This document shows positions 5,567 to 60,506 of a DNA stretch of 64,000 nt, piece after piece; the stretch's first letter is position 1, and the number at the start of each line of letters is the position of its first letter. A program made the position numbers and the translations under genes. The notes beneath the pieces were generated by a model, which was given only the letters and a program-made list of their open reading frames with translations, had not been told where the DNA came from and made no database searches. The stretch lies in contig QJZQ01000215.1 in assembly GCA_003246675.1 (NCBI GenBank), forward strand, positions 4,936 to 68,935, in the 5' to 3' direction. The stretch is from Nitrospirota bacterium. Lineage in GTDB: Bacteria; Nitrospinota; Nitrospinia; Nitrospinales; VA-1.

Positions 5567-5757
5567 CCGTCCACTCGCGGGCCGTATGGACAACACGTTG
5601 TATTTTATAGTATGTAGCGATGGAGGGGGCTCCGAGGCTTTTGAAAGCGATGATTTTTACGAAACTCTATTTCCTCCCTCATTAATATCTAACAAGAGGG
5701 CCTTAACCTGGGGGAAATAGGAAGCAAATATAGAATCCAGAGAGGAAAATCGAAACG

Positions 5758-7098
5758 ATGAAACATGAAACGTCTGAGGTGGTTATGAATTCGAAAAAAG
5801 TGAAGAGGCTGGTGCGGGTTTTTATGCTGTCGGTATTTTCGGTGTTCGCGATTTCCGAGGCGTTATCCGGCCTGGCCGCCGCAGAAATGTCTTCCACCGA
5901 GCTTCGGCTGCAGGCGCTGGAAGAGAAGGTGAAAGCCGGCGAAGACAACCTGCGTGTTTATTATAAGGACGGTCTCAAGTTCGAATCCGGGGATGGCGAT
6001 TTCAAATTTCAGATTGGCGGGCGCATCATGAACGACTGGGCCTTCAACTCCGCCGACGATGATTTCAAGTCGCAGGATCAGGAGCCCGGCGACGGGGTGG
6101 AGTTCCGCCGCGCCAGGCTTTTCTTTTCAGGCCTGATATACGACCGGGTCAAGTTCAAGGCGCAGTACGATTTCGCGGGCCAGGATGTTGACTTCAAGGA
6201 CGTTTACATGGGGCTGATCCGCCTGCCCGTGGTGGGCAACGTGGATGTGGGCCATTTCAAGGAGCCGTTTTCTCTGGAGGAGATCACCAGCTCCAAATAC
6301 ATCACCTTCATGGAGCGCTCGCTGGCAGCGGAAACCTTCGCCCCTTCGCGCAATACCGGTATCGCCTTTTACGATAACGCCCTGGACGGCAACATGACCT
6401 GGGCGGTGGGCGCCTTCCGTCCGGTGGACGACAGCGGCGACCTGGTCGGCAGCGACGATGGTTATAACGTCACGTTCCGTTTAACCGGCACCCCCTGGAA
6501 CGAAGACAAGGGCAAAAAACTGCTGCATCTGGGTTTTGCCTACACCTACCAGGAGCCCGATGGCGGCGAAGTCCGCTTCCGCAGCCGGCCGGAAAATCAC
6601 CAGACGGACCGCTTCATCGATACCGGTGATTTTTCCGCCGAGGACACCAGCATTTATGGTCTGGAGGCGGCGCTGGTACTCAACAGCCTGAGCCTGCAAG
6701 GCGAATATATGCATGCAGATGTTCGCCGCCCATCCGGCTTTTCCGACCCCGATTTCAGCGGTTACTACATCGAGGCGAGCTACTACCTCACCGGCGAGAA
6801 CCGCAGCTACAAAGAAGGAGCTTTCGGCCGCACCAAGGTGAAGAAGAACTTTCTGCAAAACGGCGGCTGGGGCGCCTGGCAGATGGCGCTCAGGTACTCT
6901 TCCGTCGACCTCAACGACGCCGGGCTCGCGGGCGGCGAGGAAGACAACATCACCGTCGGCCTCAACTGGCACCTCAACAACAACACCCGCGTGATGTTCA
7001 ATTACGTGAATGCCGACATCGAGAACTCCTTCGAAGAAAAGAACATCGCAGAGGGCGGTCTGGACATGTTCATGACCCGCTTTCAGATCGATTTTTAA
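5758..7098 (+). CDS. phosphate-selective porin O/P family outer-membrane protein (paralog)
   Basis: It carries the same blocks as the upstream porin (GGRIMNDWAF, VEFRRARLFFSG, KAQYDFAG, RFQIDF). I estimate about half the residues are identical by eye. The start could instead be the internal MNSKK. Confidence 0.85.
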   Translation: MKHETSEVVMNSKKVKRLVRVFMLSVFSVFAISEALSGLAAAEMSSTELRLQALEEKVKAGEDNLRVYYKDGLKFESGDGDFKFQIGGRIMNDWAFNSADDDFKSQDQEPGDGVEFRRARLFFSGLIYDRVKFKAQYDFAGQDVDFKDVYMGLIRLPVVGNVDVGHFKEPFSLEEITSSKYITFMERSLAAETFAPSRNTGIAFYDNALDGNMTWAVGAFRPVDDSGDLVGSDDGYNVTFRLTGTPWNEDKGKKLLHLGFAYTYQEPDGGEVRFRSRPENHQTDRFIDTGDFSAEDTSIYGLEAALVLNSLSLQGEYMHADVRRPSGFSDPDFSGYYIEASYYLTGENRSYKEGAFGRTKVKKNFLQNGGWGAWQMALRYSSVDLNDAGLAGGEEDNITVGLNWHLNNNTRVMFNYVNADIENSFEEKNIAEGGLDMFMTRFQIDF

Positions 7099-14441: not shown

Positions 14442-17008
14442 TCAGGTGTCGAGTTCGCGGAGCGTCTTGAGAGGTTTGTTTCTCAACACGTCGAGGCTGG
14501 CGAGGGTGCCTGTGAGGGCGGTGAAAACCAGAGTCAGGATCAGGGTGCCGCCGAGGGCGGCGGGGTGGAGGTGCCAGGGCGATTTGACCAGGTATGTCAT
14601 CACCGCCCAGGAGAGCGCAAGCGACAGCAGGATGCCGGTCGTCCCGGCCACCAGGCCCAGCGAGAAGTATTCGACGCCCAGCACCGAGGCGACGACGCGC
14701 GGCCGCGCGCCCAGCACCTTGAGCACCGCCGATTCCTTCATGCGGCGGAATTTGGTCGAGGCCACCGATCCGGCAAGGATGAACAACCCCGCGCCAATGG
14801 CGAACGCCGACATGAAATCCACCAGGGTCGTCAGTTTGCCGACCACGTTTTCCACCGTGTCGACAATATCGCGCGTGCTGAGCGCGGTGACGTTGGGCAG
14901 AGCGCGGGCGACGGCGTTCTGCAGCTCGAGTTCGCGCTCGTCGGGAACGTGGACGGTGGCGACGAAGGTGAGGGGTGCGCCTTCGAGCGCGCCGGGGGAA
15001 TAGATCATGTAAAAGTTCGTGCGCATGTTGCGCCAGTCGACCTTGCGGATGCTGGTCACCGGCGCGGTAATCCGCACGCCCTGGATATCCATGGTGAGGC
15101 TGGAGCCGATGTCCAGGCCGAGGCGGCGCGCGGCGTCTTCCTCCAGGGATACCTGCGGCGTGGCGGCCTCCGCCTCGCCCCACCAGGCGCCGCGAATCAC
15201 CGTGTTGTCTTTGGGCGGCGGGCCGGCCATGTAGGTCAGCACGAAATCGCGCCGGATGAACCACTCCTCCTCGCGCGGGTTTCTGAACTCCCAGCGGGAA
15301 GCCAGCCGGTCGCCCGCGCTGTACAGTTTGGAGCGGACCAGGGGCGTGAGCGAATGTTCGGCCCCGGGCGCGGTTTCATCGACGATGCGGGTGAAGCGTT
15401 CGGCCTGGTCGGGCTGGATGTCGATGAAGAAATAATTCGGCGGCCGGACCTCGGTGTTCGATTTCAGCATGGCCACCGTGTCCACCTGCACCAGGCGTAC
15501 GGTGAGCACCAGCATGATCCCCATGCCCAGGCAGGTGATGATGGCGGCGGCCTGGCTGTTGGGCCGGTGCAGGTTGGCGAGGCCGTAGCGCCGGGTCATG
15601 CTCCCTGAAGGCGGCAGGCTGCGAAGCAGCCGGAGCATCAGCGCCGAGGCCAGCCGGAGAACGAGCGCCGACGCCGCGATCGCGCCCAGAAACACAGCAC
15701 CCCGCCGCACCGAACCCGCCTGCCAGAACACCATGAGCGCCAGCCCCGCGATAATCAGCAGCGCCATCGCCGCGCGCTCCAGGCGCGAGCCAGGTGAGAG
15801 TTCTTCCTCCTCGAAATTCCTGCGGAAGAGGCGCAGCGGCCGGGTTTTCACCGCTTGCGCCAGCGGCCACAGGACAAAGAGCAGCGTCGTCGCCATCCCG
15901 AGCAGCAGGGATTCGAGAGCGGCTCGCGCGTGGAAACCGGGTTCGACGGCGACGGTGAGCAGTCCATCGAGTTTGTCCGGCAGAAGAAACTGCAGCCCGT
16001 AGCCGAGCGCCACGCCGAGCACGCTGCCGGCCAGACCGAGAACGAGAGACTGCGTGAGATAGACCTTGAAGAGCGTCGCCGGTCTTGCGCCCAGGCAGTT
16101 CAGGATGGCGAGGGTGTCGAGCTTGCCCGCCATGAACGTGCGGACGATCATGGCCACGCCGATGCCCCCCATGAGCAGCGCGATGACGCCCACCGCGCCG
16201 AGGTATTGCCCCATGCGCTCGATGGAATCGGTGATGGACGATTCCATGTCCTTGTAGGTGCGCAGATTCACCGCTTTGTCGGTGAGCCCGCGCTCGAGGA
16301 GCACGAGGGCCTTTTCGAGTTCGATGGAATTTTCGGGAAGCCGGACCAGGGTGCGGTGCTTCACCCGGCTGCCCGGCCGGATGAGCCCGGCGGCCTCAAG
16401 GGTGCCGCGGGAAACGAAAACGCGCGGGCCGATGCTGAAGGCGCGCGAGATCCGGTCCGGCTCCTTGGCCACCGTGCCGCGGACCTGCACCTCTGTTTTT
16501 CCCAGGGAGAAGGTGTCGCCCAAAGTCAGGCCCGTTTTGACGAGAAACGCAGGGTCCACCACCGCGCCGCCTTCGGCGAGCAGGTCGGCGAGGGGGCGGT
16601 CCGGCTGGCTCTTGAAGGTTCCGTACAGCGGATAGTGGGGCGCTTCAAGCGGCACCGCCTTGAGTTCGACGAGCAGGGAGGCGGATTCACCGGAAGCCCG
16701 GTGGCGGGCCATGGCCTGCAATTCCTTGATGAAAATAAAATCGGTTCCCGGAGGCAGGGTTTTTTTCTGAAAGGCCATGTCTTTCGCGCTTTGCTCCCAG
16801 CTGCTTTGAATGGCGATGTCTGCTGCGAGCAGGCCTTTCGATTCTCCGCGGATACCTGTATCGAGCAGGCTGGAGAAGCTTTTGATGGTCATCACCGCGC
16901 CCACGCCGATGGCGATACAGAGAACAAAAAATGCGAAGCGATGGCGGACGCCTCTGAACTCGGCGGCGATCAGCCTGACGGTTTGCCCGAGAGTCAGCCG
17001 GCCCGTTG

Positions 17009-17012
<4 letters not shown>
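14442..17012 (-). CDS. ybbP: FtsX-family ABC transporter permease (YbbP-like, duplicated FtsX domains)
   Basis: 856 aa with about 10 TM segments in two FtsX-like halves. It overlaps the upstream ATPase by 4 nt. Synteny with tesA matches the E. coli arrangement. Confidence 0.75.
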
Positions 17013-17746
<734 letters not shown>

Positions 17747-17766
17747 TATAGTATCAGTATAGGATT

Positions 17767-18432
17767 ATGAAGATACATCACTCATTTCTTTCTTGTAAAG
17801 GCCGCGTGCTCAGCGCGGCCCGGCTTCTGGTGATCGCCATCTGCGGGGCGCTCGCGTGGGTCGGCGATTCGAGCGGGGAGGGCGGGCCTGTGGTGGTTGC
17901 GCTGGGCGATAGTTTAACGGCGGGCTACGGCGTGCCCGAGGCAGCGAGTTACCCTGCGCGCCTGCAGGCGCTGCTCACGAGCGAAGGCTACCCGCAAACC
18001 GTGGTCAACGCCGGAGTGAGCGGCGACACGACGGCGGGCGGGCTGAGGCGCATCCGCTGGCTGCTCAGGCACGATCCGGAAATCGTCATTCTCGAGCTTG
18101 GCGCCAACGATGGCCTGCGCGGCCTGCCGCTGGAGGAAATTTATTCCAACCTGGAAAAAATCATCCTCATCTGCAAGGAAGAGGGCATCCAGGTGCTGCT
18201 GGTGGGGATGAAGGTTCCGCCCAATTACGGCGAGCATTACGCGCGCGGTTTTGAAGACGTGTTCAGCCGGCTGGCCCGCGGCCATGAACTGCCCTTTGTC
18301 CCGTTCCTTCTCGAAGGTATCGCCGCGCAAAAAGGCTACACTCAGGGCGACGGCATCCACCCGGAAGCCGAAGGCTACGCCGTGGTCACCCGGACGGTGT
18401 GGCGTCACCTGAAGCCCATGCTCAAAAAGTAA
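17767..18432 (+). CDS. tesA: SGNH/GDSL arylesterase-thioesterase, TesA-like
   Basis: GDSLTAGYG block I, GANDGLR block III and DGIHP block V. It is divergent from ybbA-ybbP. Confidence 0.8.
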   Translation: MKIHHSFLSCKGRVLSAARLLVIAICGALAWVGDSSGEGGPVVVALGDSLTAGYGVPEAASYPARLQALLTSEGYPQTVVNAGVSGDTTAGGLRRIRWLLRHDPEIVILELGANDGLRGLPLEEIYSNLEKIILICKEEGIQVLLVGMKVPPNYGEHYARGFEDVFSRLARGHELPFVPFLLEGIAAQKGYTQGDGIHPEAEGYAVVTRTVWRHLKPMLKK

Positions 18433-23212: not shown

Positions 23213-24637
23213 ATGACGACCCAAGCGGTGGAAAATTATACGGAAATTCGCGATTCGCTGGCCGAGTCAGGGCTGTTCGACGCCCAGGGAGAAACCGGCG
23301 GCAACACCTGGCGAATTTCTCTCGACGCCTACGGCCTCACGCGGCAGGAAGTTGCGTTTTTTGAGGACCTCGGCGGCCATCTCCTTAAATTCTATTCCGC
23401 CCTCAACCGGTTTTATCTGGACAGCGCCCGCGGCAAGCTTCCCACCTGGTTCGCGGAGTACCTCGACCAGGGCAAGCCCCGCGAGCTGATCGACCATGGC
23501 CGCATGAAGCGTTTCAAGGGCCTGCTGCCTGGCATCATCCGGCCCGATGTCATCGTCACCGAAGGCGGGTTCCAGGTGACCGAGCTCGACGCGGTTCCCG
23601 GCGGTTTCGGCCTGACCGCCCGCCTGATGGATATCTACCGCAATGACGGCCAGGAACTGGTGGGCGGTGACCTGCCGCGCTTGTTTTACCGCATGATGGA
23701 AAGCGCGGCCGGTACGCCAGGGGCCCGGGTGGCCATCGTGGTTTCCGACGAAGCGTCGGATTATCTGAGCGAGATGCAGTACCTCGCAAGCCGCCTCAGG
23801 GACGAGGGCGCGCCCGTGTTCGTTTGCCGTCCGGAGGAAATTCTCTTCCGGGAGGAAGGTCTGTTCGTGGCCGAAGCGGGGGAGGAGCTTCCCCTCGATG
23901 CGGTTTACCGGTTTTACGAGCTGTTCGATCTCAGGAACATCCCCAAGGCCGAACTGCTGATGTATGCCAACAAGAAGGGCCGGGTCGCCACCACCCCGCC
24001 TTACAAGCCGTGGCTGGAGGAAAAACTGGCCTTCGCCCTGTTTCACCACCCCGTGTGGCGGAAGCACTGGGAAAATGCCCTCGGCTCTGAAACTTTTACC
24101 GTCCTCACTCATCTAATTCCCAAAACCTGGATTCTCGACAACCGCGAACTGCCGCCTTACGGAGTGATCCCGGGGCTGAGCGCGGGTGGGGCTCCGGTGG
24201 GAAGCTGGCGCGAACTGCATGGCCTCACGCAAAAAGAGCGCGAGTTGGTGATCAAACCCTCCGGCTTTTCGCCCGATGCCTGGGGCAGCCGGGGTGTGGT
24301 GGTGGGGCACGACGTCTCCTCGGAAGAATGGATCGCCACGCTGGAAGAGGGTTTACGCCGGTTTCCGGAGCGGCCCTGCATCCTGCAGGAGTTTCACAAG
24401 GGCAGGCAGGTGGAGGCCGCTTTCGTGAACCCGGCAACGGGCCTTCTGGAGCGGATGAAAAGCCGGGTTCGATTGACGCCTTATTATTTTACCGTCGATG
24501 GGGCGGCCCGGCTGGGCGGGGTTCTCGCTACGCTGTGCCCCGCGAACAAAAAAAAGATTCACGGCATGGTGGACGCGATCATGGTGCCCTGTGCCGTACG
24601 GGAAAAACAGGACAACCCCGGCCTTTTGGGAGGCTAA
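23213..24637 (+). CDS. uncharacterised ATP-grasp-like ligase (glutathionylspermidine-synthase-like / circularly permuted ATP-grasp style)
   Basis: RPDVIVTEGGFQVTELDAVPGGFG and LVIKPSGFSPDAWGSRGVVVG...CILQEF resemble ATP-grasp nucleotide-binding segments. This is a fold-level guess only. The gene itself is well supported by its length and codon bias. Confidence 0.45.
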   Translation: MTTQAVENYTEIRDSLAESGLFDAQGETGGNTWRISLDAYGLTRQEVAFFEDLGGHLLKFYSALNRFYLDSARGKLPTWFAEYLDQGKPRELIDHGRMKRFKGLLPGIIRPDVIVTEGGFQVTELDAVPGGFGLTARLMDIYRNDGQELVGGDLPRLFYRMMESAAGTPGARVAIVVSDEASDYLSEMQYLASRLRDEGAPVFVCRPEEILFREEGLFVAEAGEELPLDAVYRFYELFDLRNIPKAELLMYANKKGRVATTPPYKPWLEEKLAFALFHHPVWRKHWENALGSETFTVLTHLIPKTWILDNRELPPYGVIPGLSAGGAPVGSWRELHGLTQKERELVIKPSGFSPDAWGSRGVVVGHDVSSEEWIATLEEGLRRFPERPCILQEFHKGRQVEAAFVNPATGLLERMKSRVRLTPYYFTVDGAARLGGVLATLCPANKKKIHGMVDAIMVPCAVREKQDNPGLLGG

Positions 24638-26085: not shown

Positions 26086-26333
26086 TCGCCGCCTTGCCCT
26101 TCACAACACGTTGTTTTTTTAAGTTTTAACCCGAATGCTTGGGGGCAGGGCCCGCCCGCCTTTTCTTTCCTCGCCGCATAATTCGCTAACTGATTTAAAA
26201 ATGGTTAGTTGCGCAGAGCCCTCCCCCCGAGGCCGCGGCTTCTCCCGGCGCTTTTTCTCCCTCCCTGCGTACCCCTGAAATTAAATTAGTGGTGTAAAAT
26301 CAAGAATTTATTAGACTCCCGCCGGGTTTGGAG

Positions 26334-26352
26334 TTATATTAAGAGAATATAA
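26334..26352. promoter_or_regulatory. perfect inverted repeat TTATATT-N5-AATATAA upstream of secretin gene
   Basis: Read directly from the sequence. It is centred about 44 nt upstream of ATG 26387, in an AT-rich patch of a 336-nt intergenic region. Confidence 0.3.
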
Positions 26353-26386
26353 TTCCATGTAAATTTATAGCAAATAGGACCTCACT

Positions 26387-27955
26387 ATGGTCACGTTTCG
26401 CGCACTCTTATGCCGGGCGCTCCTGGTCCCGGTCGGGGCCTGTTTTCTGGCCTCCTGCATCGTTCAGTCGGGGTCTATGTCTTCGCCCTCGGTGGAGGAG
26501 GAGATCCCGCAGATGGAAGGCCGTCTGGAGGCATCGCCGGAGAAGGAGCCCGTGGCGGAAGAGGGACCGCAAGAGCCGGTGAAGCCCGGCGCGCTCACCC
26601 TCACCCAGCCCGAGCTTGAGCTCAAGAAGCCCCGGGCCCGCGGTCCCCGTTTCAACCTTTCGGCGCGTGAGGTGGCGATTGAAACCATCCTGCTGACCCT
26701 CGCCAGGCAGTTGGAACGCAATATCGTGGTCGACCCGGGCATCGACGAGACGGCCACCATCGAACTTAGGGACGTGACCCTGGAAGAGGCGCTCAATCAC
26801 CTGCTCACCCCCTACGGGCTGCGGCAGGAGGTGGAAGAGGGGGTCATCCGCGTCAGCCGCGAGAAAATGGAAATTCGGATGTTTCATCTGAACTACGTCC
26901 TGTCCCGGCGCGAGGGGCAGAGCCGCCTTGGCTCCTCCCCTGGCCTCGGCGACGGGCTTGCGACCTCGAGTGCGGTGGTGTCCCGTGAGGAGGCGAACCT
27001 CTGGGAGGAGATTCAAAAGGGCCTGGGCGATCTGGTGTATGACGCGGGGCAGCGGCCCGCCGACCCGGCAACCTCCGGGAAAGACCGGCCTTATTATTCC
27101 ATTCAGCAGCAGGCGGGGATCATCCTGGTGAACCATTTCCCGCGCACCCTCCTGAAAGTCGCCCGGTTTCTTGAAGAGGTCGAGGGCTCGGTGCAGCGCC
27201 AGGTGTTCATCCAGGCGAAGATCATCGAAGTGTCTCTCAACGAGGAAAACCGGCTGGGGATCGACTGGCGAAAAGTGAACCCGGAAGCATCGGCGGGAGG
27301 GTTGTCCGACGCCGGTTTCGAGAGCGCGATGGCCTACGGCGTTCATAACGCCCGCCCCGAGAGGGTGATCGAAGCGCTGTCCCGCCAGGGGCAGGTGCGC
27401 ATGCTTTCCAGCCCCAAGATCGCCACGCTCAACAACCAGCGGGCGCTCATCAAGGTGGGAACCGAAGAGGTCTACTTTCGCCCCGAAACCGGGGGAGCGT
27501 CCCCGTCCTACGCCGCCTGGCCCGTCACCGAGGGAATCGTCCTCGACGTGGTGCCGCAGATCAACCCGAACGGCACGATCATGATGAGCATCAACACCAG
27601 CATCACCGAGCGCTCGGGCGAGCGCGTCTCGCCGGATGGCAAGAGCGCGGTGCCGGTTCTCGACGTGCGCCAGTCGAATAACGTGGTGCTTGCCGGTAAC
27701 GGGCAGACCATCGTCATCGGCGGGCTGATGAAAAAAACGCAGCGCAGCGAGGAGGGCAGCGGGCCACTGTTCGGCGGCCTGTTTCATGCCGATCGCGAAG
27801 AGGACGAAAAGACCGAGCTGGTCATCCTCCTCACGCCGCAGATCATGGTGGGCGACGCGGTGAACGACCGTTATGAGATCGAAAGAGAGCGCTTGAAGGC
27901 TCTGGGGGTTGCCGAGTCGCGCGGGCAGACCCTGTTTCCCGTTTTTAAAAGGTAA
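26387..27955 (+). CDS. secretin (type II/IV pilus secretin family, MshL-like lipoprotein)
   Basis: Lipobox FLASC. The C-terminal secretin domain includes VFIQAKIIEVSLNEENRLGIDW, LSSPKIATLNNQRALIKVG, GQTIVIGGLM and TELVILLTPQI. Confidence 0.85.
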   Translation: MVTFRALLCRALLVPVGACFLASCIVQSGSMSSPSVEEEIPQMEGRLEASPEKEPVAEEGPQEPVKPGALTLTQPELELKKPRARGPRFNLSAREVAIETILLTLARQLERNIVVDPGIDETATIELRDVTLEEALNHLLTPYGLRQEVEEGVIRVSREKMEIRMFHLNYVLSRREGQSRLGSSPGLGDGLATSSAVVSREEANLWEEIQKGLGDLVYDAGQRPADPATSGKDRPYYSIQQQAGIILVNHFPRTLLKVARFLEEVEGSVQRQVFIQAKIIEVSLNEENRLGIDWRKVNPEASAGGLSDAGFESAMAYGVHNARPERVIEALSRQGQVRMLSSPKIATLNNQRALIKVGTEEVYFRPETGGASPSYAAWPVTEGIVLDVVPQINPNGTIMMSINTSITERSGERVSPDGKSAVPVLDVRQSNNVVLAGNGQTIVIGGLMKKTQRSEEGSGPLFGGLFHADREEDEKTELVILLTPQIMVGDAVNDRYEIERERLKALGVAESRGQTLFPVFKR

Positions 27956-27963
27956 ATAAAGCC

Positions 27964-29376
27964 ATGTATCAGGAATACTATCAGTTTCAGGAAAAGCCCT
28001 TCAGCCTGACGCCCGACCCCAAGTTCCTCTACCCGAGCGTGAAGCACCAGGAAGCACTGGACCACCTCCTGTACGGCATCCGGCAGCGGGAAGGGTTCAT
28101 GCTCATGGTGGGCGATGTGGGCACCGGCAAGACCACGCTCTGCCGCTCCCTGCTGGAGAAGCTCGATGCGGACGTGAAGACGGCCCTGGTGCTCGACCCC
28201 CTGGGCTCGGAAATGGACTTGCTGCGGACCTGTCTTGCCGACCTGGGCGTGCCTCGCGTCCGCGCAAACCGGCTGACGCCTGCCCTGGCGGGCGCGGTGG
28301 AACAGCACCCCTCATTCGAGACGACGCCGTATTTCGACGAGGAGGATGACGAAGGCTGGACCGGCCATGCGAGCAAGAAGGAGCTCACCGACGCGCTCAA
28401 CGAATACCTGCTCGAACAGCATCGGGCGGGCGGGACGGTCGTGCTCATCATCGACGAAGCGCAGAACCTGTCGCTTCCCGTGTTGGAGCAGCTGCGCCTC
28501 CTGTCGAACCTGGAAACGGAAAAGGACAAACTTCTGCAGATCATTTTCGCCGGCCAGCTGGAACTCGCCGACAAGCTGAACCTGCCCGAACTCAAGCAGC
28601 TCAACGAACGCATCTCCATCCGTTGCCGGATCGCCCCTTTGTCCCGGGAAGAGACCCAGCAGTACATCATGCACCGGGTGCTGGTCGCCGGGGCGGGTTC
28701 GCGCCTCGTGTTTGCGCCTTCCGGTCTGAACGCAATCCACGATTATTCGAAAGGCGTTCCCCGGCGCATCAACCTGGTGTGCGACCGCGCCCTGCTCGCG
28801 GGGTTCAACGCCCAGGCGGGGGTTCTTGAGCGCAGCCACGTGAAGCAGGCCATCCGCAGCCTGGCCGGCGACGAGGGCGCCCCCGTTATGCGGGATTTTT
28901 TGTGGCTGCGCATGCCGCTGGTGCTGGGCATCCTTTTTGTTATCGCCGGACTGGCGTTGTTTGTTCTGCCGCAGAAGTTCGCCCAGAAGGAGTGGCGCAT
29001 CACAGATTTGGCCGGCCCGGAAAACGTCGAGAAGACTCCACCCGCCGAAGCGCCGCCAGAGCAAGACCCGCCGCTTGCCGTTAAAACCGCCGCCTCGGCC
29101 ATCGAAACGAATGGCACGGCGGGCAAGCAGGACGCGATTCACTATCGCATCCAGGTGAGCACCATGAGCGAGGCGGAACGAGCGGAAAAGGAAGTGGATA
29201 AATTGCGCGAGGAGGGTTACCCGGCCTACTGGAAAAAAGCGTTTTCTTCAAAGCGCGACTGGTATATTGTTTATGTGGGCCCCTATGACAGGAATCCGCC
29301 CGCGAGGATCCACCTGAACGCGCTCAAGTATTCAGGCCGGCATCCGATCCTCCTGTCGTTCACCTCCTCGGATTGA
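27964..29376 (+). CDS. ExeA/MshM-like AAA ATPase with TM segment and C-terminal SPOR domain
   Basis: N-terminus YYQFQEKPFSLTPDPKFLY, Walker A GDVGTGKTT, Walker B VVLIIDEAQNL, one TM (LVLGILFVIAGLALFVL). The C-terminal SPOR-like fold reads HYRIQVSTMSEAERAEKEVDKLREEGYPAYW...WYIVYVGPY. Confidence 0.8.
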   Translation: MYQEYYQFQEKPFSLTPDPKFLYPSVKHQEALDHLLYGIRQREGFMLMVGDVGTGKTTLCRSLLEKLDADVKTALVLDPLGSEMDLLRTCLADLGVPRVRANRLTPALAGAVEQHPSFETTPYFDEEDDEGWTGHASKKELTDALNEYLLEQHRAGGTVVLIIDEAQNLSLPVLEQLRLLSNLETEKDKLLQIIFAGQLELADKLNLPELKQLNERISIRCRIAPLSREETQQYIMHRVLVAGAGSRLVFAPSGLNAIHDYSKGVPRRINLVCDRALLAGFNAQAGVLERSHVKQAIRSLAGDEGAPVMRDFLWLRMPLVLGILFVIAGLALFVLPQKFAQKEWRITDLAGPENVEKTPPAEAPPEQDPPLAVKTAASAIETNGTAGKQDAIHYRIQVSTMSEAERAEKEVDKLREEGYPAYWKKAFSSKRDWYIVYVGPYDRNPPARIHLNALKYSGRHPILLSFTSSD

Positions 29377-30992
29377 GACCCGCTTTGAGCCTCATCGCCG
29401 ACAGCCTGAAAAGGGCGGCCCGGGAAAAAGCCTCCCGCGGTACCGCGCGCCAGGACATGCCCCTGATGGGCGGTCCGGGAAAGCAACGGCCGACAAAAAC
29501 CGCCCGTATCGGCCGGTTTGTTCTGCTCATCCTCATCCCCTGCTCGGTTCTCGGCGGGCTCCTTTATATCGCCTTTTCCGGCAGGGACGGGTCTCTCCAG
29601 GAGAAAAGACCGGCGATCGAGGAGACCCGTGCGGTTCTCAAGGAAGCGCCGGAAACAGCCCTCGCGCCGCCGGCGGTGGAGGAGGTAACGCCGCCTCCGG
29701 TGAAGGAGCGGATCATTCGCGGAACCATGAAAAAGCCGGAAACTCCTCCGGTACCATTGAAAGACCCCGCGGCCTCTTCAGAGAAATCCCCCGTACAGGC
29801 TGCTGCCGCCGATCGTCCCGGGGAAAAGGCCGCCGCGTCCGCCACGGCCCCTCCGCTGAAAAAGAAAAAACCCGTCGCCGCGAAGCCCGCAAAAGTTCCG
29901 CCTCCGCTGCAAGTGGAAGAACCCGAAGCCATGCCGGAGAAGCCTCCCGCGCAGGCTGCGGCTCCCGATCGTTCCGGGGAAAAAGCCGCCGCTCTCGGAA
30001 AGAGCGCCCCGGCCGCCCCGGTTACGCCGGCCGAACCGGCCGCCAAACCCCGGCCTGAAGTTGTGGATCGGGCCGTAAAGCCCTTGTCGCCGGATGTCGC
30101 ACCCCGGCAGGCCAAAGCGGTGCCCCGCGTCGAGGAGGTTGCCGCACCTGAAGAGCCAGAGCGCATTGCCCTGCCGCCGGTGCAGGAGAAACCGTTGGAA
30201 ATAGAAGAAGAGATCGTTGCCGAAATAGAGAAACCGGCGCCCGCGAAACCCCGCGAAGCAGCCAAGAGCCCGGCCGTGCCCGTGCGGAAACCGGTTGAGC
30301 AGGCGCGGCAACCGGGCCCCCCGGCTCCCGCTCCACGCGCCGCGCCCACCACCGGAGGAGACACCTCCGCTCTCAACCTCACCCTGTCGCGGACGGCGGG
30401 GGAAGGTCAGGCGGCGGTTTTTCAGACCAGCGTGTATCACTTCAACCGTGGCGTGTTCTTTCAGCAGGCGAAACAGTGGGACGAGGCGCTGGTGGAATAC
30501 CAGGAGGCGGCGCGCCTCAACCCCGAAAATGCCGATGCCTACAACAACCTGGGAGTGGTCTACAAGGCCAAGGGAGAGCTGGACCAGGCAATTCGGGAAT
30601 TTCTGCGCGCGGTTTATCTCGACCCCGACTACAGTAAGGCATACAATAATATCGGAGTGGTGTACTATATGAAAAAGGATTTCGAAGGCGCGATTCGCAA
30701 TTACGAAAAAGCCATCGAAACCCGGCCCGACAACCTGGAAGCTCTCAACAACCTGGCCATCGTTTACAGAAATCAGAGTGAGCCGCAAAAGGCGTTGGGG
30801 GTTCTCAACCGGTCGTTGGCCATCGACCCGGAGCACGCGGGCACCAACTACAATCTGGCCGTGTTATATGAGGATCATGGGGAGCCGCAGCCAGCGCTCC
30901 ACTATTACCGCCGTTTCATCAAGCTCGGAGAGAGGAGCCACCCCGCCCTCGTCTTCGAGGTCAAGAAGCACCTTGAGACCCTCGATCATTAG
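29373..30992 (+). CDS. membrane-anchored Pro/Ala/Lys-rich linker plus TPR-repeat protein (MshN-like)
   Basis: TTG at 29373 overlaps the upstream TGA; alternative ATG at 29457. One TM, an about 300-aa low-complexity linker, then 5-6 TPR units (AYNNLGVVYKAKGELDQAIREF...). Confidence 0.7.
   Translation: MRPALSLIADSLKRAAREKASRGTARQDMPLMGGPGKQRPTKTARIGRFVLLILIPCSVLGGLLYIAFSGRDGSLQEKRPAIEETRAVLKEAPETALAPPAVEEVTPPPVKERIIRGTMKKPETPPVPLKDPAASSEKSPVQAAAADRPGEKAAASATAPPLKKKKPVAAKPAKVPPPLQVEEPEAMPEKPPAQAAAPDRSGEKAAALGKSAPAAPVTPAEPAAKPRPEVVDRAVKPLSPDVAPRQAKAVPRVEEVAAPEEPERIALPPVQEKPLEIEEEIVAEIEKPAPAKPREAAKSPAVPVRKPVEQARQPGPPAPAPRAAPTTGGDTSALNLTLSRTAGEGQAAVFQTSVYHFNRGVFFQQAKQWDEALVEYQEAARLNPENADAYNNLGVVYKAKGELDQAIREFLRAVYLDPDYSKAYNNIGVVYYMKKDFEGAIRNYEKAIETRPDNLEALNNLAIVYRNQSEPQKALGVLNRSLAIDPEHAGTNYNLAVLYEDHGEPQPALHYYRRFIKLGERSHPALVFEVKKHLETLDH
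29788..29992 (+). repeat. two imperfect about 47-bp direct repeats inside the TPR gene linker
   Basis: 29788-29834 and 29946-29992 both encode P(V/A)QAAA(A/P)DR(P/S)GEKAAA. Confidence 0.7.
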
Positions 30993-31021
30993 CCTGCCAC
31001 CTCGTGGCCGGCGACCAGGCC

Positions 31022-31684
31022 ATGCATAAATTCAAGACCGACCTTAAAAAAAACCTCATCGCCGGGCTGCTGGTCACCGTACCCGTTGCGCTGACCTATA
31101 TCATCCTGTCGTTCGTCATCCGCAGTGTCGATGCGGCCATGGAGCCGGTGATCCTGAAGGTGCTCGGCGCGAAAGGCGTGCGCTGGATGCAGGAGTACCC
31201 CGTTCCCGGCCTGGGGTTCGTGCTGCTGGTGATTTTCATTATTCTGGTCGGGCTCTTTGCCACCAATTTTTTTGGCAAGCAGGTGGTGCTGGCGGGTGAG
31301 CTGATCCTGCACAAGATCCCGTTCGTGCGCGTTATCTACACCAGCATCAAGAAGGTGGTGGACACCCTTTCGCAGTCGGAAACGCCGACCTTTGAAAAAA
31401 TGGTTCTCATCACCTATCCGCGCGAGCCTCTCAAGACGCTGGGCATCGTGTGCTGCGACACGAAGGGGGAGATCTCCAGCCACACGCAAGGGGGGTCGGT
31501 GAATGTATTCGTGCCCACTTCCCCCAACCCCACCACCGGTTTCCTCCTGATGGTGCCGATGGAAAACCTGGACATTCTCGACATGTCGGTGGAAGACGGT
31601 TTGAAGATGATTATTTCCTTCGGCATGGTGAGCGCTCCGGAAACGGGCGAGGCGCAGAAGGTGGGATCGCGGGACGAGGGCTAG
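31022..31684 (+). CDS. DUF502 family membrane protein
   Basis: N-terminus LKKNLIAGLLVTVPVALTYIIL, then later VPTSPNPTTGFLLMVP, which is typical of DUF502. Confidence 0.75.
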   Translation: MHKFKTDLKKNLIAGLLVTVPVALTYIILSFVIRSVDAAMEPVILKVLGAKGVRWMQEYPVPGLGFVLLVIFIILVGLFATNFFGKQVVLAGELILHKIPFVRVIYTSIKKVVDTLSQSETPTFEKMVLITYPREPLKTLGIVCCDTKGEISSHTQGGSVNVFVPTSPNPTTGFLLMVPMENLDILDMSVEDGLKMIISFGMVSAPETGEAQKVGSRDEG

Positions 31685-39638: not shown

Positions 39639-40893
39639 CGTCCCAGCCGGGAATCCTCACGATAAAGGTGGTCTTTTCTCCGATGGCGCTTTCGACATCG
39701 ATGGTGCCCTGATGGGCCTTGATGATGTTGTGGCAGATGGCGAGGCCGAGACCGGTGCCTTTGTCCTTGGTGGAAAAAAATGGATCGAAGATTTTCTCCA
39801 GGTGCTCCGCGGCGATACCGCCGCCGGTGTCGGAGATCGACAGCGTGACGAAGCGGCGGTGGTCGACGTTCCATCCCTCGTCGTCTGTTCCCGCCGGTTC
39901 TATCGAGACGCCAAGCTCGCCCCCTTCGGGCATGGCCTGAAGACCGTTTCTCAGCAGGTTATGAAACACGCGCCTGAGAAGCTCGCCGTCGCCGCTCACC
40001 CAGCATTCGCCGGGGGCGAACTGGCGGACGACGCGGATGTTTTCAGGCAGCTCAAGATCCGGCGAAGCCTCAAGCAGGTCGGTCAGCAGTTGCCGTACGT
40101 CGCACTTCTGGCGTGAGGGGCGCGGCGACTTGGCGAACAGCAGGAACGAGGAAATGATGCGGTCCATGTTCTTCACCCCGGCGCGGATGTGGTCGACAAG
40201 CGGGGCCGTGCCCGGGTCGCCGGCAAGGTCCTTCTTAAGCAGGGAGGCGAACAGTTCGATGCTTGCCAGCGGGTTGCGGATTTCGTGGGCGATGCCCGCG
40301 GCCATCTCCCCCATGGCGCGCAGGCGCTGGTTGCGCTGGGCCTCGTCTTCCAGGGTATGCAGCCGGGTGTTGTCCTGCAAAATGAGCACCGTGCCGATGG
40401 GTTGTTGATCCTGGTCGAACACGCGCGAGGCAAAGATGCGCAGGAAGAGGGGCTTTGCGTTTTCCCCGGGCAGCTCGCGGTCGAGGCTGATCGAGCGGCC
40501 GCTTTCGGTCACGCGCTGCACGAGGATTTCGAAAAGGTCGTGCGTGAAGACTTTCCGGAGAGGTTTGTTCAGGCAATCCGCCGGGGCTTGCCCGGTGATG
40601 AGGCCCGCGGTCCGGTTGCAAGTGGTGATGAAGCCCTGGTTGTCCACCACCAGAACGCCGCTGGTCAGGCTCTCGAGAATATTGCTCAGGTAATTCTTGA
40701 CCTCCTCCTTCTCCCGCAGGTTTTCGAACAGTTCCTGATTTTTACGCGCCAGCTCGAGGTCGAGCTGTTTCACGCGCTCTTTCAGGCTGTCGTAGGAGTC
40801 CTGGAGTTTGGCCGTCGCCTCGTTGAACGCCTGGAAGGCCTGGTTGAGGGCTTCCATATCCTCGGGAGTCCGGCCCCTGGCGGGCGGGATCAT
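39625..40893 (-). CDS. cytoplasmic PAS sensor histidine kinase (FlrB/FleS-like by context)
   Basis: ATG at 40893 forms an ATGA overlap with the upstream gene. No TM; coiled coil, PAS, H-box [13 protein letters not shown], and HATPase ([13 protein letters not shown]). Confidence 0.8.
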
Positions 40894-43418
40894 AAGCGGG
40901 TTTTGATGTTCTTTTCCCAATCGAGCACCTTGAGTTTGTTTTCCGCCGCTTGCCTCATCAGGTCATCGCCTTCTTCCGAATCGGCCATGCGTTTCAGTTC
41001 CCGGGTGAGGCTGCGGGTGTTCTTCTGTTTTTCATGGCTGTCGGCAATCAGGTAGTCGGCCCATGGTTTCTGCGAGTGTTCCGGAAACAGTTTGCGTGCC
41101 TGGTCGAGGGCCTTCACCGCTTCGGAGTATTGCCCGGACCGGTGGTACGTGGAACCCAGTTGGTAGTAGGAATCCCGGATGTAAGCGGGAATGGTGCGGA
41201 CATCCGGATCGAACGCGCCGATCGCTTTTTTGTATTGCAGGGCCGCCTTGTCCAGCTGCCCGAGGGCGCTGTGGGCCTCGGCCAGCAGGAAATGCACTTC
41301 CGAGGGGTCCTTGACGCGCCGCTTGAGAATGCTTTCGAAGGTGTCCACGGCCTCGCGAAGTCTTTTCTGCCCCCAATAGGCTTTGCCGAGGATTTTCAGG
41401 GCCTCGGGCGCGCGCGGGCTTGCCGGGTATTGCTTGAGGAAGGCCCGGGCGACCGCTTCCACCTCCTTGTAGTCCTTGCGTTCGAGGTGGATTTCTCCCA
41501 GGTTGATGAGGATGCGGTCGCTGAACACGCCTTTGGGGTCCTTGAGTTTCACGCGCTCGTAAAAATTGAGCGCCTCGGGGTAGAGGCCGATGGCCTGGTA
41601 GGCCTCGCCGATTTGCAGGAGAGTCTTGCGGTCCTTCACCTCGCCGAGCGACAGGCCCATGAAATCGCTGTAGCTGTATAAAACGGGCAGGGCGCCGCCC
41701 TGGTTGGAATACTTGTCGACCAGGAGTTTCAGGGTCTCCCGGATGCGCTCGCGGGCGCGCGGGTAGTGCTCGGAATCCGGCCCGAGGGGGAGCAGTTTCT
41801 TGAATTCCTCCAGCGCTTTCAGGTAGCTCTGTTGTTCGAGAAAGGAGTTGCCGCGGCTCAGGGTGATTTCGGCCAGGGTTCCCAGGTCTTCGGTCTGGCC
41901 TGCAACTTGTTGATAGGTCTTGAAGGGGTTGCGGTAGGCGGTGGCGTCGACGAGGTGGTCTTTCACCGGCAAGTTCGGCGAACGCACGCCGATGTCGGCC
42001 ATGCGGATGAGGGCGTAGCGCCCTTCGGAGCTTTGGGTTTTGCGCCGGGCCGATTCATCGAACACCGATAGCGCTTTCATATCCTGCTTTTCGATCAGAT
42101 AGGAATCGCCGATGATGTTGAGCGCCCGGTGTGCACGCGGGTCTTCCGGAGCCAGGTTGACGAGCTGGTACAGTGCGCTCCGTGCTTTGGGGTAGTTCGC
42201 GTTGCTGAAATAGATCTCACCCATGTAGAAATGGATTTCCGGCTGCTCGTTCAACTGGCTGGGCCAGCGGCGGGCGCCTTCCTCGTAGATCTTGAGCGCC
42301 CGGGGGAAATTGCCTTCGTCGTAGTGGTGCCGGGCGATGGTGAAAATCGCCTCGCGGGCGGCGATGTTTTTGGGCGCGTTCTTCAGCACATCCTGATAGG
42401 CATCGTAGGCTTCCACGTATTTGCCCTTGCTCATGAGCATGCTGGCCAGGTCGATCTGCCGCGCCTGGTTGTAGGGGTCGGCGGCGTTTTTCCTCAGGAC
42501 CTCCTCGTACAGGGCCTTGGCCTCGATGGTGTAGCCGATCTCGTTATAGATCTGGGCGATTTTGTATTGCGCGTGGCGCGCGAAACGGGAACCGGGGAAT
42601 TGCCTGAGCGCGAACTTGTACGCGTCGAGCGCGCGGTCATAGACGGGGTTCGCCTCCAGGTGGGCGGCCTGGTAACGGCTCTCCGCGATGAGGTACAGGA
42701 CTTCGGGCGCGTATTTGCTTTTGGGGTGCTTTTCCCAGAAGGCTTCGAGCCGTTCGATGGCTCCGGGGTAATCGTGCGCCTGGTATTTCTTGAGCGCCTT
42801 CAGGTAGTCGGTGTGGCCGTGCCGGGTTTTTTCGTCGTCGTCCTTTTTATTGATACCGCTCAGCTGTTCCTCGCTCAATCCCGCGATGCGGGCTTTTCTA
42901 TTGCGGGGCTCGCGTTTGTCGGCCGCCTTGGCGGGTACGGGCTTCGGTGCGGCCACCGGTGCGGGTTTCGGTGCGGCCACCGGTGCGGGTTTGACAGCGG
43001 GTTCCGCCCCCGGCGGTTTGAGATCGATCACCACCTGGAATGTTTTGCCGTCGATAAAGTGAGAAAAAACCGTGTCCTGTGCTTGCAGGCCGAGGGTCAC
43101 CCGGGGTGCGCCCGAAGAGGGTTCAACCCTAAGAGACGCGAGGTTCTTGTCCTGGTAGCTGCGCGACCGGATCGAAGCATCGAGCACCGCTCCGGGAAAG
43201 GTCAGCGTGACTGTTTTATTCGCAGGATCGGTTTTCACCTGATAATCCACCGGTCCGCTCAAATCGATGAGCAGGCGGGTAGCGCTCGGGTGAGGGCCGA
43301 GGCGGATGCGTTCCACCCGTGGCGCGGCGTCTTCGTTTTCGCTTGCGGCGTCGCCTGCGCCGGGGGACATCGCAAGCCCGGCGAGAATCAGGAAAATGTA
43401 GAAATAAAATCGCGCCAT
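40890..43418 (-). CDS. secreted AMIN-domain plus multi-TPR protein (842 aa)
   Basis: ATG at 43418 gives the signal peptide MARFYFYIFLILAGLAMSPGAGDA. AMIN-like VERIRLGPHPSATRLLIDLSGPVDYQV...VTLTFPGAVLD, a Pro/Ala/Lys linker, then about 15 TPR units. Confidence 0.7.
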   Translation of the reverse strand: MARFYFYIFLILAGLAMSPGAGDAASENEDAAPRVERIRLGPHPSATRLLIDLSGPVDYQVKTDPANKTVTLTFPGAVLDASIRSRSYQDKNLASLRVEPSSGAPRVTLGLQAQDTVFSHFIDGKTFQVVIDLKPPGAEPAVKPAPVAAPKPAPVAAPKPVPAKAADKREPRNRKARIAGLSEEQLSGINKKDDDEKTRHGHTDYLKALKKYQAHDYPGAIERLEAFWEKHPKSKYAPEVLYLIAESRYQAAHLEANPVYDRALDAYKFALRQFPGSRFARHAQYKIAQIYNEIGYTIEAKALYEEVLRKNAADPYNQARQIDLASMLMSKGKYVEAYDAYQDVLKNAPKNIAAREAIFTIARHHYDEGNFPRALKIYEEGARRWPSQLNEQPEIHFYMGEIYFSNANYPKARSALYQLVNLAPEDPRAHRALNIIGDSYLIEKQDMKALSVFDESARRKTQSSEGRYALIRMADIGVRSPNLPVKDHLVDATAYRNPFKTYQQVAGQTEDLGTLAEITLSRGNSFLEQQSYLKALEEFKKLLPLGPDSEHYPRARERIRETLKLLVDKYSNQGGALPVLYSYSDFMGLSLGEVKDRKTLLQIGEAYQAIGLYPEALNFYERVKLKDPKGVFSDRILINLGEIHLERKDYKEVEAVARAFLKQYPASPRAPEALKILGKAYWGQKRLREAVDTFESILKRRVKDPSEVHFLLAEAHSALGQLDKAALQYKKAIGAFDPDVRTIPAYIRDSYYQLGSTYHRSGQYSEAVKALDQARKLFPEHSQKPWADYLIADSHEKQKNTRSLTRELKRMADSEEGDDLMRQAAENKLKVLDWEKNIKTRL
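42943..42990. repeat. perfect 24-bp tandem repeat x2, in frame (KPAPVAAP x2)
   Basis: TTCGGTGCGGCCACCGGTGCGGGT occurs at 42943-42966 and again at 42967-42990. Confidence 0.95.
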
Positions 43419-43463
43419 TATTTGTCTGCGGGGGATTGCGGGTTCATAAGACAATTATATAAC

Positions 43464-51587: not shown

Positions 51588-52673
51588 TCATGTTTCGGGT
51601 GTGGTTTTCAGGGCATCGTTAAACATGCCGATCAGCCGTTCGGTATTTTTATCCCAATCGAACTCAAGAACCTTTCGTCGCCCGTTTTCCGCCAGGCGGC
51701 GCAGACGCTCTTCATCGTCCAGAAGGGAAGCCAGGTTTGCCGCCAGTTTTTCCGGGTTGCGGGGCGGGGAGACCAAGGCTGTTTCTTCGTGGATGGCGTA
51801 ATCGCGGCAGCCGCCCGTATCGGTGGTCACCAGGGCCGCGCCGCAGGCGAGGGCCTCCATGCCGGGCAGGCCGAACCCTTCGTGCCAGCTGGTGCAAAGA
51901 AAAATGTCCGCCGATGCGTAAATTTTTCGCAAGGCCTCACCGGTGGGGCGGTAGTGATATTCGAATTCGAAACCCGCCTCGGCATACAGAGGGCGAGGGT
52001 CCTTCATCTTTTCGCCGAACACCACCAAGTCGATTTCTTTTCCCATCTCACGGACCTGGCGCACCGCGGCGATGCCGTCCTTATAACCTTTCCATTCGTA
52101 ATTATGGTGCAGCATCAAAACCCGGCGTGGCCGGTTCCATGTTTTGTTTTCGCAAAAAAACTGCGCGCGGTTGACCGGGGTGATGAACACCTCGGACGTC
52201 TGCTGATAATCAGTTTCGAGAATGGTCTTCAGCCAGGTGGAAACGACGATTTTGTTAAACGGCAGGCGATAGGTTCGCTCCGCGTCGTTGCGGTTGCCCG
52301 ACCAGAGGCTTTCGTGGTGCTGGATGAAATAAAATACTTCGCCCTGGGCCGGGCGGCACTCGGCGGCGAACTCGGCGGTCTGCCAGGCCGTGGCCACCAG
52401 GATGTCGGCATCGGGCAGCAGGCTGGTGTCCAGCCTGGGCAAAACGTCAATGGGAATTTGATTGTCGAACCAGTCCACCGTGCTTGCCGGCAGGGTTCGA
52501 ACCTGCTTGAAGTGAGCCACCAGCCTTCTTAGCAGGCGGTACCACCGCTCTTTTTTAGGCAGGACGACAAGGTGGACCTCATGGCCGCGGGCGTGCAGGC
52601 GCTGCGCGTATTCCAGGATCACCCGGACCCCGCCACTGAGACGGACATGCGGTAGAAGAAAGAAGATTTTCAC
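51588..52673 (-). CDS. glycosyltransferase family 4
   Basis: MKIFFLLPHVRLSGGVRV...; EGFGLPGMEALACGAALVTTDTGG. Confidence 0.8.
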   Translation of the reverse strand: MKIFFLLPHVRLSGGVRVILEYAQRLHARGHEVHLVVLPKKERWYRLLRRLVAHFKQVRTLPASTVDWFDNQIPIDVLPRLDTSLLPDADILVATAWQTAEFAAECRPAQGEVFYFIQHHESLWSGNRNDAERTYRLPFNKIVVSTWLKTILETDYQQTSEVFITPVNRAQFFCENKTWNRPRRVLMLHHNYEWKGYKDGIAAVRQVREMGKEIDLVVFGEKMKDPRPLYAEAGFEFEYHYRPTGEALRKIYASADIFLCTSWHEGFGLPGMEALACGAALVTTDTGGCRDYAIHEETALVSPPRNPEKLAANLASLLDDEERLRRLAENGRRKVLEFDWDKNTERLIGMFNDALKTTPET

Positions 52674-53297
52674 GGACAGGGTTGGGAGATTGGAAGTTTA
52701 ATTTTGATTTTCACGGGGTCATGAAAATAAGCGGGTTCGTATTTGGGCCTCGAACTTGCGCCGGGGTGGGCTGGTTTTGCCGCCCTGACTTCAAGCTCGA
52801 AAGCCGCCTCAACCAATGGGTACGCTACTCGGAGGGGCTCAATGCACCTCGCGTGAATTTCCGATACCCGTGATCAATATACTCAACGTTTGTAAATCGA
52901 TTTTGAACGTTACTGAAACCATTTCTATGGGAAAAGATGAGAGGATATGAGATGAAGCTGTTGAATTTGCCTTGTGCATGCTCTCGGTAAAAGACATCCA
53001 CAATCTGCATATTCGGCTTATTTCCCGGGATGTTATCCAACAGCCCCAACTCGCTGGCGCATCGGATAACATCCGTTCCTGGCCGGTCCCCGTCCTTTTC
53101 TGTTCTTGAAATGTATCTTTAAGTTGCCCGACACTGGCCTGGAGTCCACCTCGCGGCGTTCTGGCACTCCATAATGAATTTATCGTGTTATCCAACTTCT
53201 GACTTCGTTCCGGGCTATATCATTTCCTCGCCATCATCCCCAGTCCTTTTGCGATAGCTAAATTACTCGCGGTGGAAACCGCCGCAGAGATCGAAGG

Positions 53298-54062: not shown

Positions 54063-54103
54063 TTTTTCCTCTGTAAAGCCTTTCGCGGTTAGGCAGGTTT
54101 ATT

Positions 54104-60384: not shown

Positions 60385-60506
60385 AAGTAATTACCTGGCG
60401 AGAAAAATCTATAAATGGAATATATTTAGGCGGTTCTTATGAATCAGGATTCCCACCATTTCTATTATATGGGGCGCGTCGAAACGACGCTCGTGGTTGG
60501 AATGCT

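Follow-up and report, generated by a model that had tools for sequence, protein, structure and literature searches.

A conserved, isolated MshL/M/N-type secretin module in Nitrospinota

Several described systems bring secretins to the outer membrane with the help of dedicated proteins. GspA combines an AAA+ domain and a transmembrane segment with a peptidoglycan-binding domain in the periplasm, and together with GspB it gets secretins through the peptidoglycan (PMC9239104). The Legionella secretin LspD itself bears a SPOR-like domain (PMC9239104). In the mannose-sensitive hemagglutinin (MSH or MSHA) pilus system, MshN is reported as a homologue of TadD, a factor needed for assembly of the Tad secretin (PMC6668835). 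The roles of MshM, MshN and GspA-type ATPases are generally poorly understood, and the locus described here bears on them. We analysed a stretch of 64,000 nucleotides from a Nitrospinota genome (NCBI GenBank assembly GCA_003246675.1, contig QJZQ01000215.1), called the window below, which contains three adjacent genes for a secretin, a P-loop ATPase and a tetratricopeptide repeat (TPR) protein. The trio is a secretin module of the MshL/M/N type in an unusual, conserved, isolated arrangement, and no new kind of machine. With moderate confidence, we propose that the three genes are one operon for an MSHA (MshL)-type outer-membrane secretin channel and two dedicated assembly factors, and that this channel most likely works for a type IV filament machine whose genes lie elsewhere.

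The secretin operon and its three products

The three genes were delimited by open reading frame (ORF) listing and translation:

26387-27955, + strand: lipoprotein secretin gene
27964-29376, + strand: GspA/ExeA/MshM-type P-loop ATPase gene
29373 (or 29385) to 30992, + strand: membrane-anchored TPR protein gene

A 336-nt spacer separates the end of a radical-SAM gene (26050) from the secretin start, and 8 nt lie between the secretin and ATPase genes. The TPR gene has two candidate start codons: TTG 29373 gives the longest ORF and a 4-nt overlap with the ATPase gene, and the in-frame TTG 29385, at which orthologue alignments begin, gives an 8-nt gap. The packing is tight with either start codon. 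An earlier, sequence-only reading of this DNA had described a tightly packed lipoprotein secretin, ExeA/MshM-like ATPase and membrane-anchored TPR protein, ordered as mshL-mshM-mshN behind a 336-nt intergenic region. Pfam and NCBIfam matches, the lipobox and hydropathy bear out the identities, the ORF listing bears out the spacer, and the order analogy holds (secretin, P-loop ATPase, TPR protein). Of the spacing it gave, the 8-nt gap stands and the 4-nt overlap holds only if TTG 29373 is the start. The secretin-ATPase-TPR order is found in at least 12 Nitrospinota loci and in six loci from other phyla.

The secretin (522 aa) matches Pfam Secretin (PF00263; E=2.4e-30, 105.8 bits against a cut-off of 27.5) and, in its N-terminal part, Pfam STN (30.8 bits, cut-off 28.4); it joins a C-terminal barrel to an N0-type periplasmic domain, as expected of the Secretin superfamily. 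Its signal peptide ends in a LASC lipobox, and Cys24 is kept in at least 90% of 69 homologues. These homologues are metagenomic, those with names being Nitrospinae or Nitrospina, and many are called MshL in the JGI annotation. Among NCBIfam models MshL ranks highest (170.5 bits), followed by PilQ (139.9), GspD (122) and SctC (84); every score is under its cut-off, which for the MshL equivalog TIGR02519 is a curated 250.2 bits. An AlphaFold2 model (mean predicted local distance difference test score 69, folded domains 75-89) displays, at approximate positions, a disordered linker, N0/STN at residues 89-167, one N1/N3-like domain at 236-284, the barrel at 317-487 and a C-terminal helix at 490-505. 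Foldseek with this model returned only secretins, with BfpB (a lipoprotein pilus secretin), InvG, PulD and Vibrio cholerae PilQ at the top and E values down to 2e-20. As modelled, an N0 and a single N-domain before the barrel would fit a pilus-type secretin better than the secretin of a type II secretion system (T2SS), GspD, with its four N-domains.

The ATPase (470 aa) matches Pfam AAA_22 (E=2.9e-27, 96 bits). It has the Walker A and B motifs of the GspA/ExeA AAA+ P-loop domain, and its Walker A (GTGKTT) and DEAQ box are invariant among six orthologues. Hydropathy reveals a single hydrophobic helix at residues ~317-337, followed by a Pro-rich periplasmic linker and a C-terminal SPOR domain (PF05036, residues 393-457, E=8.1e-11). 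Pfam gave no match to the PF01471 peptidoglycan-binding domain of GspA/ExeA in this protein; SPOR is found in that place, and may bind denuded septal peptidoglycan. The AAA_22-transmembrane-SPOR architecture recurs in Acidobacteriota and in a Binatia-like metagenome-assembled genome (MAG). The best NCBIfam model is TIGR03015, the PEP-CTERM-associated ATPase, which spans the entire AAA part at 268.8 bits against a cut-off of 324.5. Profile searches, proposed in the sequence-only reading as a way to place these proteins, thus single out MshL for the secretin and TIGR03015 for the ATPase, with neither reaching its cut-off. An exact-sequence look-up with the ATPase yielded no contig. A PDB sequence search with it gave no match, and in the literature searched we found no description of a SPOR-type helper ATPase for secretins.

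The TPR protein (539 aa from TTG 29373, 535 aa from TTG 29385) has one N-terminal hydrophobic, transmembrane helix (residues 48-68 by hydropathy), a linker of 275 residues rich in Ala, Pro, Glu and Lys (39% Ala+Pro), and about five near-consensus TPR repeats at residues ~355-530 (Pfam). Conservation among orthologues is limited to the N-terminus and the TPR domain. NCBIfam scores stay under their cut-offs for PilW (84 vs 154 bits), Tgl (74 vs 225) and PrsT (72 vs 312), and the protein has no canonical lipobox; it does not have the features of the PilW/PilF, Tgl and TadD pilotins, namely an outer-membrane lipoprotein scoring above cut-off. Where GspA has GspB with its HR domain, the adjacent partner here is this TPR protein, in which Pfam and NCBIfam detected no other family. 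A PDB sequence search with the TPR domain returned generic TPR proteins only.

ORFs were called over the whole 64 kb and scanned against Pfam at E<=1e-5. None matched N_methyl pilin, T2SSE, T2SSF, PilM/N/O/P or a second secretin. Likewise, motif scans of the 64 kb for prepilin leaders and the GspE Walker A motif gave no match; for a prepilin peptidase, the Pfam scans alone, with no motif probe, found none. Measured by the MSH system definition of Denise et al. 2019 (PMC6668835), only mshL-like and mshM-like genes are present within 64 kb. The sequence-only reading had noted that no pilus or T2SS gene flanks the trio, with metabolic genes upstream and DUF502 and a flagellar operon downstream, and the scans agree on each point, with the prepilin peptidase covered by Pfam only.

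Related loci, the conserved leader and the surroundings

Two layouts of the trio occur among the Nitrospinota loci (L numbers denote loci related to the window). In the isolated layout, kamA lies directly upstream of the secretin gene, and, on contigs that extend far enough, DUF502 and fliJIHGF come after the trio. Eight loci have it: the window, L001 (on a 3.25-Mb contig), L003 (1.07 Mb), L005, L086, L087, L092 and L097. The same trio, with the same DUF502 and flagellar synteny, has pilus neighbours in L002, L004 and L089. Directly before the secretin gene, these loci encode two to three N_methyl pseudopilins, a DUF7305 protein, a PilM_2 fusion of 580-610 aa, a PilO-like protein and a small ORF. 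This neighbourhood is incomplete, being without motor, platform or major pilin, and no motor or platform gene lies within 10 kb of any of the three trios, which suggests that split loci are normal in Nitrospinota. The main difference between the secretins of the two layouts is a low-complexity insertion of 60-90 residues, rich in Ser, Gly, Ala and Asp (Pfam Secretin_N_2), located after N0 and before the domain that follows. The secretins of isolated trios lack it; it is present in the products of:

L002, 10001-11830: insertion-bearing secretin gene
L004, 10001-12016: insertion-bearing secretin gene
L089, 12932-14815: insertion-bearing secretin gene

By FliG identity the window falls with L001 and L003; L002 and L004 stand outside this group and are also far from each other. 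This grouping suggests that the layout with pilus neighbours is probably ancestral and that the isolated layout arose by deletion of these neighbours. A tblastn search of the window, 336-nt spacer included, with the L002 and L004 minor pilin, PilM_2 and PilO sequences detected no remnant of these genes. We found no literature on pili or secretion in Nitrospina or Nitrospinota, the supplements of PMC10839748 included.

A genome scan of GTDB with the ATPase alignment gave at least 600 matches, with no Nitrospinota among the matches listed. The best six loci among these (L006-L011) retain the secretin-ATPase-TPR order. In the Binatia-like MAG of L009 the order is MshEN-containing T2SSE, T2SSF, PilM_2, PilO, small ORF, secretin, ATPase with SPOR, and TPR protein, which by gene content is a complete MSHA-like locus. 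A search with the MshE of L009 returned at least 120 matches, and those listed are all close Binatia or 'Deltaproteobacteria' relatives. In three Acidobacteriota MAGs (L006, L007, L008), the trio, with a SPOR-type ATPase, sits between genes for inositol-1-phosphate synthase and acetyl-CoA synthetase. Two genes beyond the trio, L006 encodes an intact MshEN-T2SSE-zinc-ribbon ATPase (15904-17907). In L007 the ATPase core is deleted and MshEN is fused to the zinc ribbon (15797-16402), leaving a 201-aa MshEN-only protein that could be a stand-alone binder of cyclic di-GMP; in L008 the MshEN-type gene is missing at the corresponding place.

The full locus of L009 and the pilus linkage in Nitrospinota indicate that the trio belongs historically to MSHA-like type IV filament loci. 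Since it adjoins pil genes in relatives and closes a full locus in L009, we regard it as a piece of such a filament system and no separate invention. Judged from these loci, the trio has outlived neighbouring pilus genes at least twice, in Nitrospinota and in Acidobacteriota. The sequence-only reading had left it to be checked whether the trio is conserved as an isolated unit, which the eight kamA-linked loci confirm. It had also named, as a finding that would speak against it, a complete locus in relatives from which the trio had merely been split off. This came out in part: pil genes do adjoin the trio in L002, L004 and L089, and a full locus exists in the Binatia-like L009; the Nitrospinota neighbourhood is nevertheless incomplete, and the neighbours appear lost rather than moved.

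The trio is preceded by a conserved leader and followed by a fourth gene on the same strand:

26290-26386, + strand: promoter and 5' leader of the trio (promoter scan, DNA conservation)
31004-31684, + strand: DUF502 membrane protein gene (Pfam DUF502, E=4.2e-30)

About 100 nt upstream of the secretin gene are conserved as DNA in eight Nitrospinota loci of 25-60% GC and of both layouts. In the window, the promoter consists of an A/T-rich upstream element, TGTAAAATCAAGAATTTAT, a -35-like TAGACT (26312-26317) and a -10-like TATATT ending at 26340. The conserved arrangement is TGTAAAATCAAGAATTTAT-TAGACT, 17 nt containing CCGGTTTCG, and TTATATT, and the leader is seen at the window and at L001, L002, L003, L004, L005, L086, L087, L090, L092 and L097. 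As the leader is conserved even where pil genes adjoin upstream, the trio has its own promoter, which fits a module kept or moved as a unit. The conserved spacer element CCGGTTTCG suggests a putative operator for a regulator. No sigma-54 or sigma-28 promoter was found before the secretin gene, and Rfam gave no match on the leader. The promoter motif occurs once in the window, with 0 occurrences expected by chance. A metagenome-wide scan found it with extended similarity at secretin loci only: three of its 11 matches are further isolated secretin loci, and the other eight, without extended similarity, agree with the chance number (pattern information ~37 bits). The motif thus pointed to no co-regulated partner loci in the metagenomes scanned.

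A gap of 11-30 nt, free of terminator-like sites, separates the TPR stop from the DUF502 gene. All Nitrospinota loci that reach beyond the TPR gene have DUF502 next, on the strand of the trio; the trio loci of other phyla lack it. DUF502 may be a fourth member of the transcription unit in Nitrospinota, as this spacing and synteny suggest.

Before the trio, the window carries the pho regulon, transporters, radical-SAM and lipid genes and then, directly upstream, the KamA-family radical-SAM gene kamA. Within the phoB-phoR-pstSCAB-phoU cluster lie two tandem genes for phosphate-selective OprO/P-type porins (4301-7098, + strand). A conserved 474-aa protein without family match (23213-24637, + strand) is encoded upstream of kamA; every isolated-trio locus has its gene in the syntenic place, and the proteins are 62-82% identical. 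Beyond the trio and DUF502 come fliJ/fliI/fliH/fliG/fliF/flgC on the - strand, followed by a sigma-54 two-component pair, an AMIN+TPR protein, NAD salvage, lipopolysaccharide (LPS) glycosyltransferases and a low-GC sugar island. The AMIN+TPR protein (40890-43454, - strand; 854 aa) has an N-terminal AMIN domain and many TPR repeats, and its gene is adjacent both to the flagellar genes and to the sigma-54 response regulator/histidine kinase pair. PilQ and cell-wall amidases typically carry AMIN domains. The island (~52000-60500; 44-52% GC vs ~61%) encodes a CmcI-type methyltransferase, a 4,6-dehydratase, a nucleotidyltransferase and a GT2 enzyme, adjoins the LPS glycosyltransferases and is probably an O-antigen-type cluster gained by horizontal transfer.

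Retained function, proposed assembly and alternatives

The isolated trios are intact in at least eight loci despite divergence to ~45% identity. Measured against L005, the ratio of nonsynonymous to synonymous substitution rates (dN/dS) is 0.25 for the secretin and 0.20 for the ATPase; flanking genes range over 0.11-0.14 (kamA 0.11). These ratios indicate that the trio is under purifying selection. Within the isolated group, mean pairwise identity is 0.63 for N0 and 0.61 for the barrel. N0 is thus as conserved as the barrel, suggesting that the periplasmic docking domain is still constrained.

We propose the following model. The secretin would be exported and lipidated at Cys24. The ATPase would reside in the inner membrane with its P-loop domain in the cytoplasm and its SPOR domain gripping peptidoglycan in the periplasm. 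The TPR protein, anchored in the inner membrane, would span the periplasm with its long Pro/Ala-rich linker and hold secretin subunits with its TPR domain. By analogy with the action of GspA/ExeA and GspB on GspD, and of the TPR pilotins TadD, PilF and Tgl on their secretins, ATPase and TPR protein may bring secretin protomers to and through the cell wall for multimerisation in the outer membrane. Assembly would probably take place at division sites or new poles, because SPOR domains prefer denuded septal glycan. The module would derive from an MSHA-like type IV filament system whose adjoining alignment-complex and minor-pilin genes were deleted here, and the finished channel would most likely serve a filament machine with its motor, platform and pilins elsewhere in the genome.

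Several points weigh against this proposal. The secretin and the ATPase both score under curated cut-offs (MshL, TIGR03015), the SPOR-type members of the ATPase family are known from sequence alone, and the TPR domain is so near to consensus that tying it by sequence to MshN, TadD or PilF is impossible. The 64 kb yielded no gene for a motor ATPase, platform, pilin or alignment protein, and type IV filament genes in the isolated-trio genomes are only inferred. Furthermore, no MshI-like PilM_2 homologue was found on long contigs of the isolated-trio lineage. A word-indexed search with the L002 PilM_2 fusion returned a compact family of ~78 proteins and then dropped sharply to unrelated PilM proteins. 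Homologues were assigned to secretin contigs by equal size in bp, which paired at least 22 long-type secretins with a PilM_2 homologue and placed one on none of the isolated-trio contigs of 3,250,952; 1,068,776; 824,132; 641,904; 286,168; 170,173; 128,835 and 108,468 bp, the first of which is probably a nearly whole genome. Within the sensitivity of the word-indexed search, the MshI-like gene seems to be absent from the isolated lineage and not relocated. With PilM_2 absent from its long contigs, the lineage seems to have lost the original partner complex, so that a partner, if there is one, must belong to another type. The same losses favor a pilus-independent, self-sufficient outer-membrane channel, kept for DNA uptake, protein or polymer release or other traffic: the PilM_2 fusion is gone, yet the trio is under purifying selection with a conserved promoter of its own. 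The Acidobacteriota offer a parallel, the MshE-type ATPase being intact in L006, without its core in L007 and absent from L008. However, the N0 domain, a docking site for machines, is not relaxed in the isolated group, and no candidate cargo gene is linked to the trio. The analysis covered the window and related loci, and partners may lie elsewhere in the genomes. To our knowledge, all characterised secretins work with an inner-membrane machine, be it a T2SS, type IV pilus, type III secretion system, Tad or phage. We consider such a channel unlikely, though a serious alternative, and it is similarly doubtful that one Nitrospinota lineage and the Acidobacteriota each independently retained the trio for pilus-independent transport once the alignment complex or motor had been lost. 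The sequence-only reading had offered both a minimal secretin-assembly unit for a distant locus and a self-contained channel of unknown cargo; the former is the better supported and the latter less so.

The remaining explanations have far less in their favor. That the trio is part of exopolysaccharide or PEP-CTERM (XrtA) export, with a PEP-CTERM-associated ATPase and a PrsT-like TPR protein, draws on TIGR03015 as the best match of the ATPase, on the weak PrsT match, on most distant-relative ATPases among the matches listed, which have no adjacent secretin, and on the LPS and sugar genes 17-30 kb from the trio. Both scores are nevertheless under their cut-offs (268.8 vs 324.5 and 72 vs 312), no exosortase, PEP-CTERM protein, chain-length or polysaccharide-export gene lies near the trio in any locus, and the closest ATPase relatives among the matches listed all follow a secretin, often in pilus loci. 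We know of no secretin in the described PEP-CTERM gene set. With scores under cut-off and neither exosortase nor PEP-CTERM neighbours in the window or related loci, we rejected this membership as highly improbable. It is just as hard to see the trio as the functionless leftover, now decaying, of a pilus locus that was lost. Its pilus neighbours are indeed gone, and the dN/dS of 0.20-0.25 is about twice that of flanking kamA (0.11), but these values are well below 1, none of the at least eight deeply diverged isolated loci has a frameshift or stop, catalytic motifs and lipobox are kept, and the promoter is conserved as DNA, all of which makes decay very unlikely. Least probable of all is a tie to the flagellum, for instance as an outer-membrane or cell-wall passage factor. 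Trio, DUF502 and fliJIHGF are syntenic in all Nitrospinota loci that reach that far; the whole region, kamA and lon-like genes included, is syntenic, however, so this linkage is weakly informative. The trio and the flagellar genes are convergent on opposite strands, the trio's promoter motif does not precede flagellar genes in the window, and in Acidobacteriota and Binatia-like MAGs no flagellar genes accompany the trio. Flagellar linkage was rejected on the convergent strands, the region-wide synteny and the flagellum-free trios of other phyla.

The trio, in every case a transcription unit of its own behind a strongly conserved promoter, survives the loss of neighbouring pilus genes in two phyla and so offers a natural minimal system for studying secretin biogenesis. 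The SPOR-bearing subfamily, present in at least three phyla, suggests a rule in which the ATPase is the cell-wall anchor for secretin assembly and peptidoglycan-binding modules are interchangeable. Should it be true that no partner machine exists, the trio would be a case of a secretin working alone. For annotators, it follows that an MSHA pilus should not be assumed from an isolated 'MshL' gene in Nitrospinota.

Comparison with described systems

The nearest counterpart is the V. cholerae cluster mshHIJKLMNEGF, which has the order mshL-mshM-mshN and whose MshL is the best secretin family for the window protein. Relatives of the trio carry mshI/J/K-like genes (PilM_2 fusion, PilO, small ORF) upstream, and one has an MshEN motor and a platform. 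Unlike V. cholerae MSHA, the window trio is without mshA, E, G, I, J and K in 64 kb, its secretin scores under the MshL cut-off, and its ATPase has a transmembrane helix and a periplasmic SPOR domain. MSH systems, in contrast to the window, are reported to be encoded almost always at a single locus (PMC6668835).

GspA/ExeA of the Aeromonas and Vibrio T2SS resembles the window ATPase in topology, in having a bitopic inner-membrane partner and in acting on a secretin, the last two being predicted for the window protein. Genes for GspA and GspB can likewise be encoded apart from the main locus (PMC9239104). The window differs in having SPOR instead of PF01471 and a peptidase-like region, a TPR partner instead of the HR-domain protein GspB, and a short N0+N1 lipoprotein instead of GspD. 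TIGR03015 and PrsT of the PEP-CTERM systems share with the trio the best NCBIfam model for the ATPase and the GxxGxGKTT and DEAQ motifs; the window ATPase scores under cut-off, has no exosortase or PEP-CTERM genes nearby, comes with a secretin and bears SPOR.

PilF/PilW, Tgl and TadD are, like the window protein, TPR proteins encoded with, or needed for, a pilus secretin, and NCBIfam gives weak PilW and Tgl matches. They are outer-membrane lipoproteins, whereas the window protein is predicted to be anchored in the inner membrane, with a linker of 275 residues. The SPOR-like domain of LspD and the AMIN domain of PilQ appear to provide the same tie from secretin to peptidoglycan, with AMIN directed to septal peptidoglycan (PMC9239104; title of PMC5285504). 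In LspD and PilQ the anchor is on the secretin itself; in the window it is on the partner ATPase.

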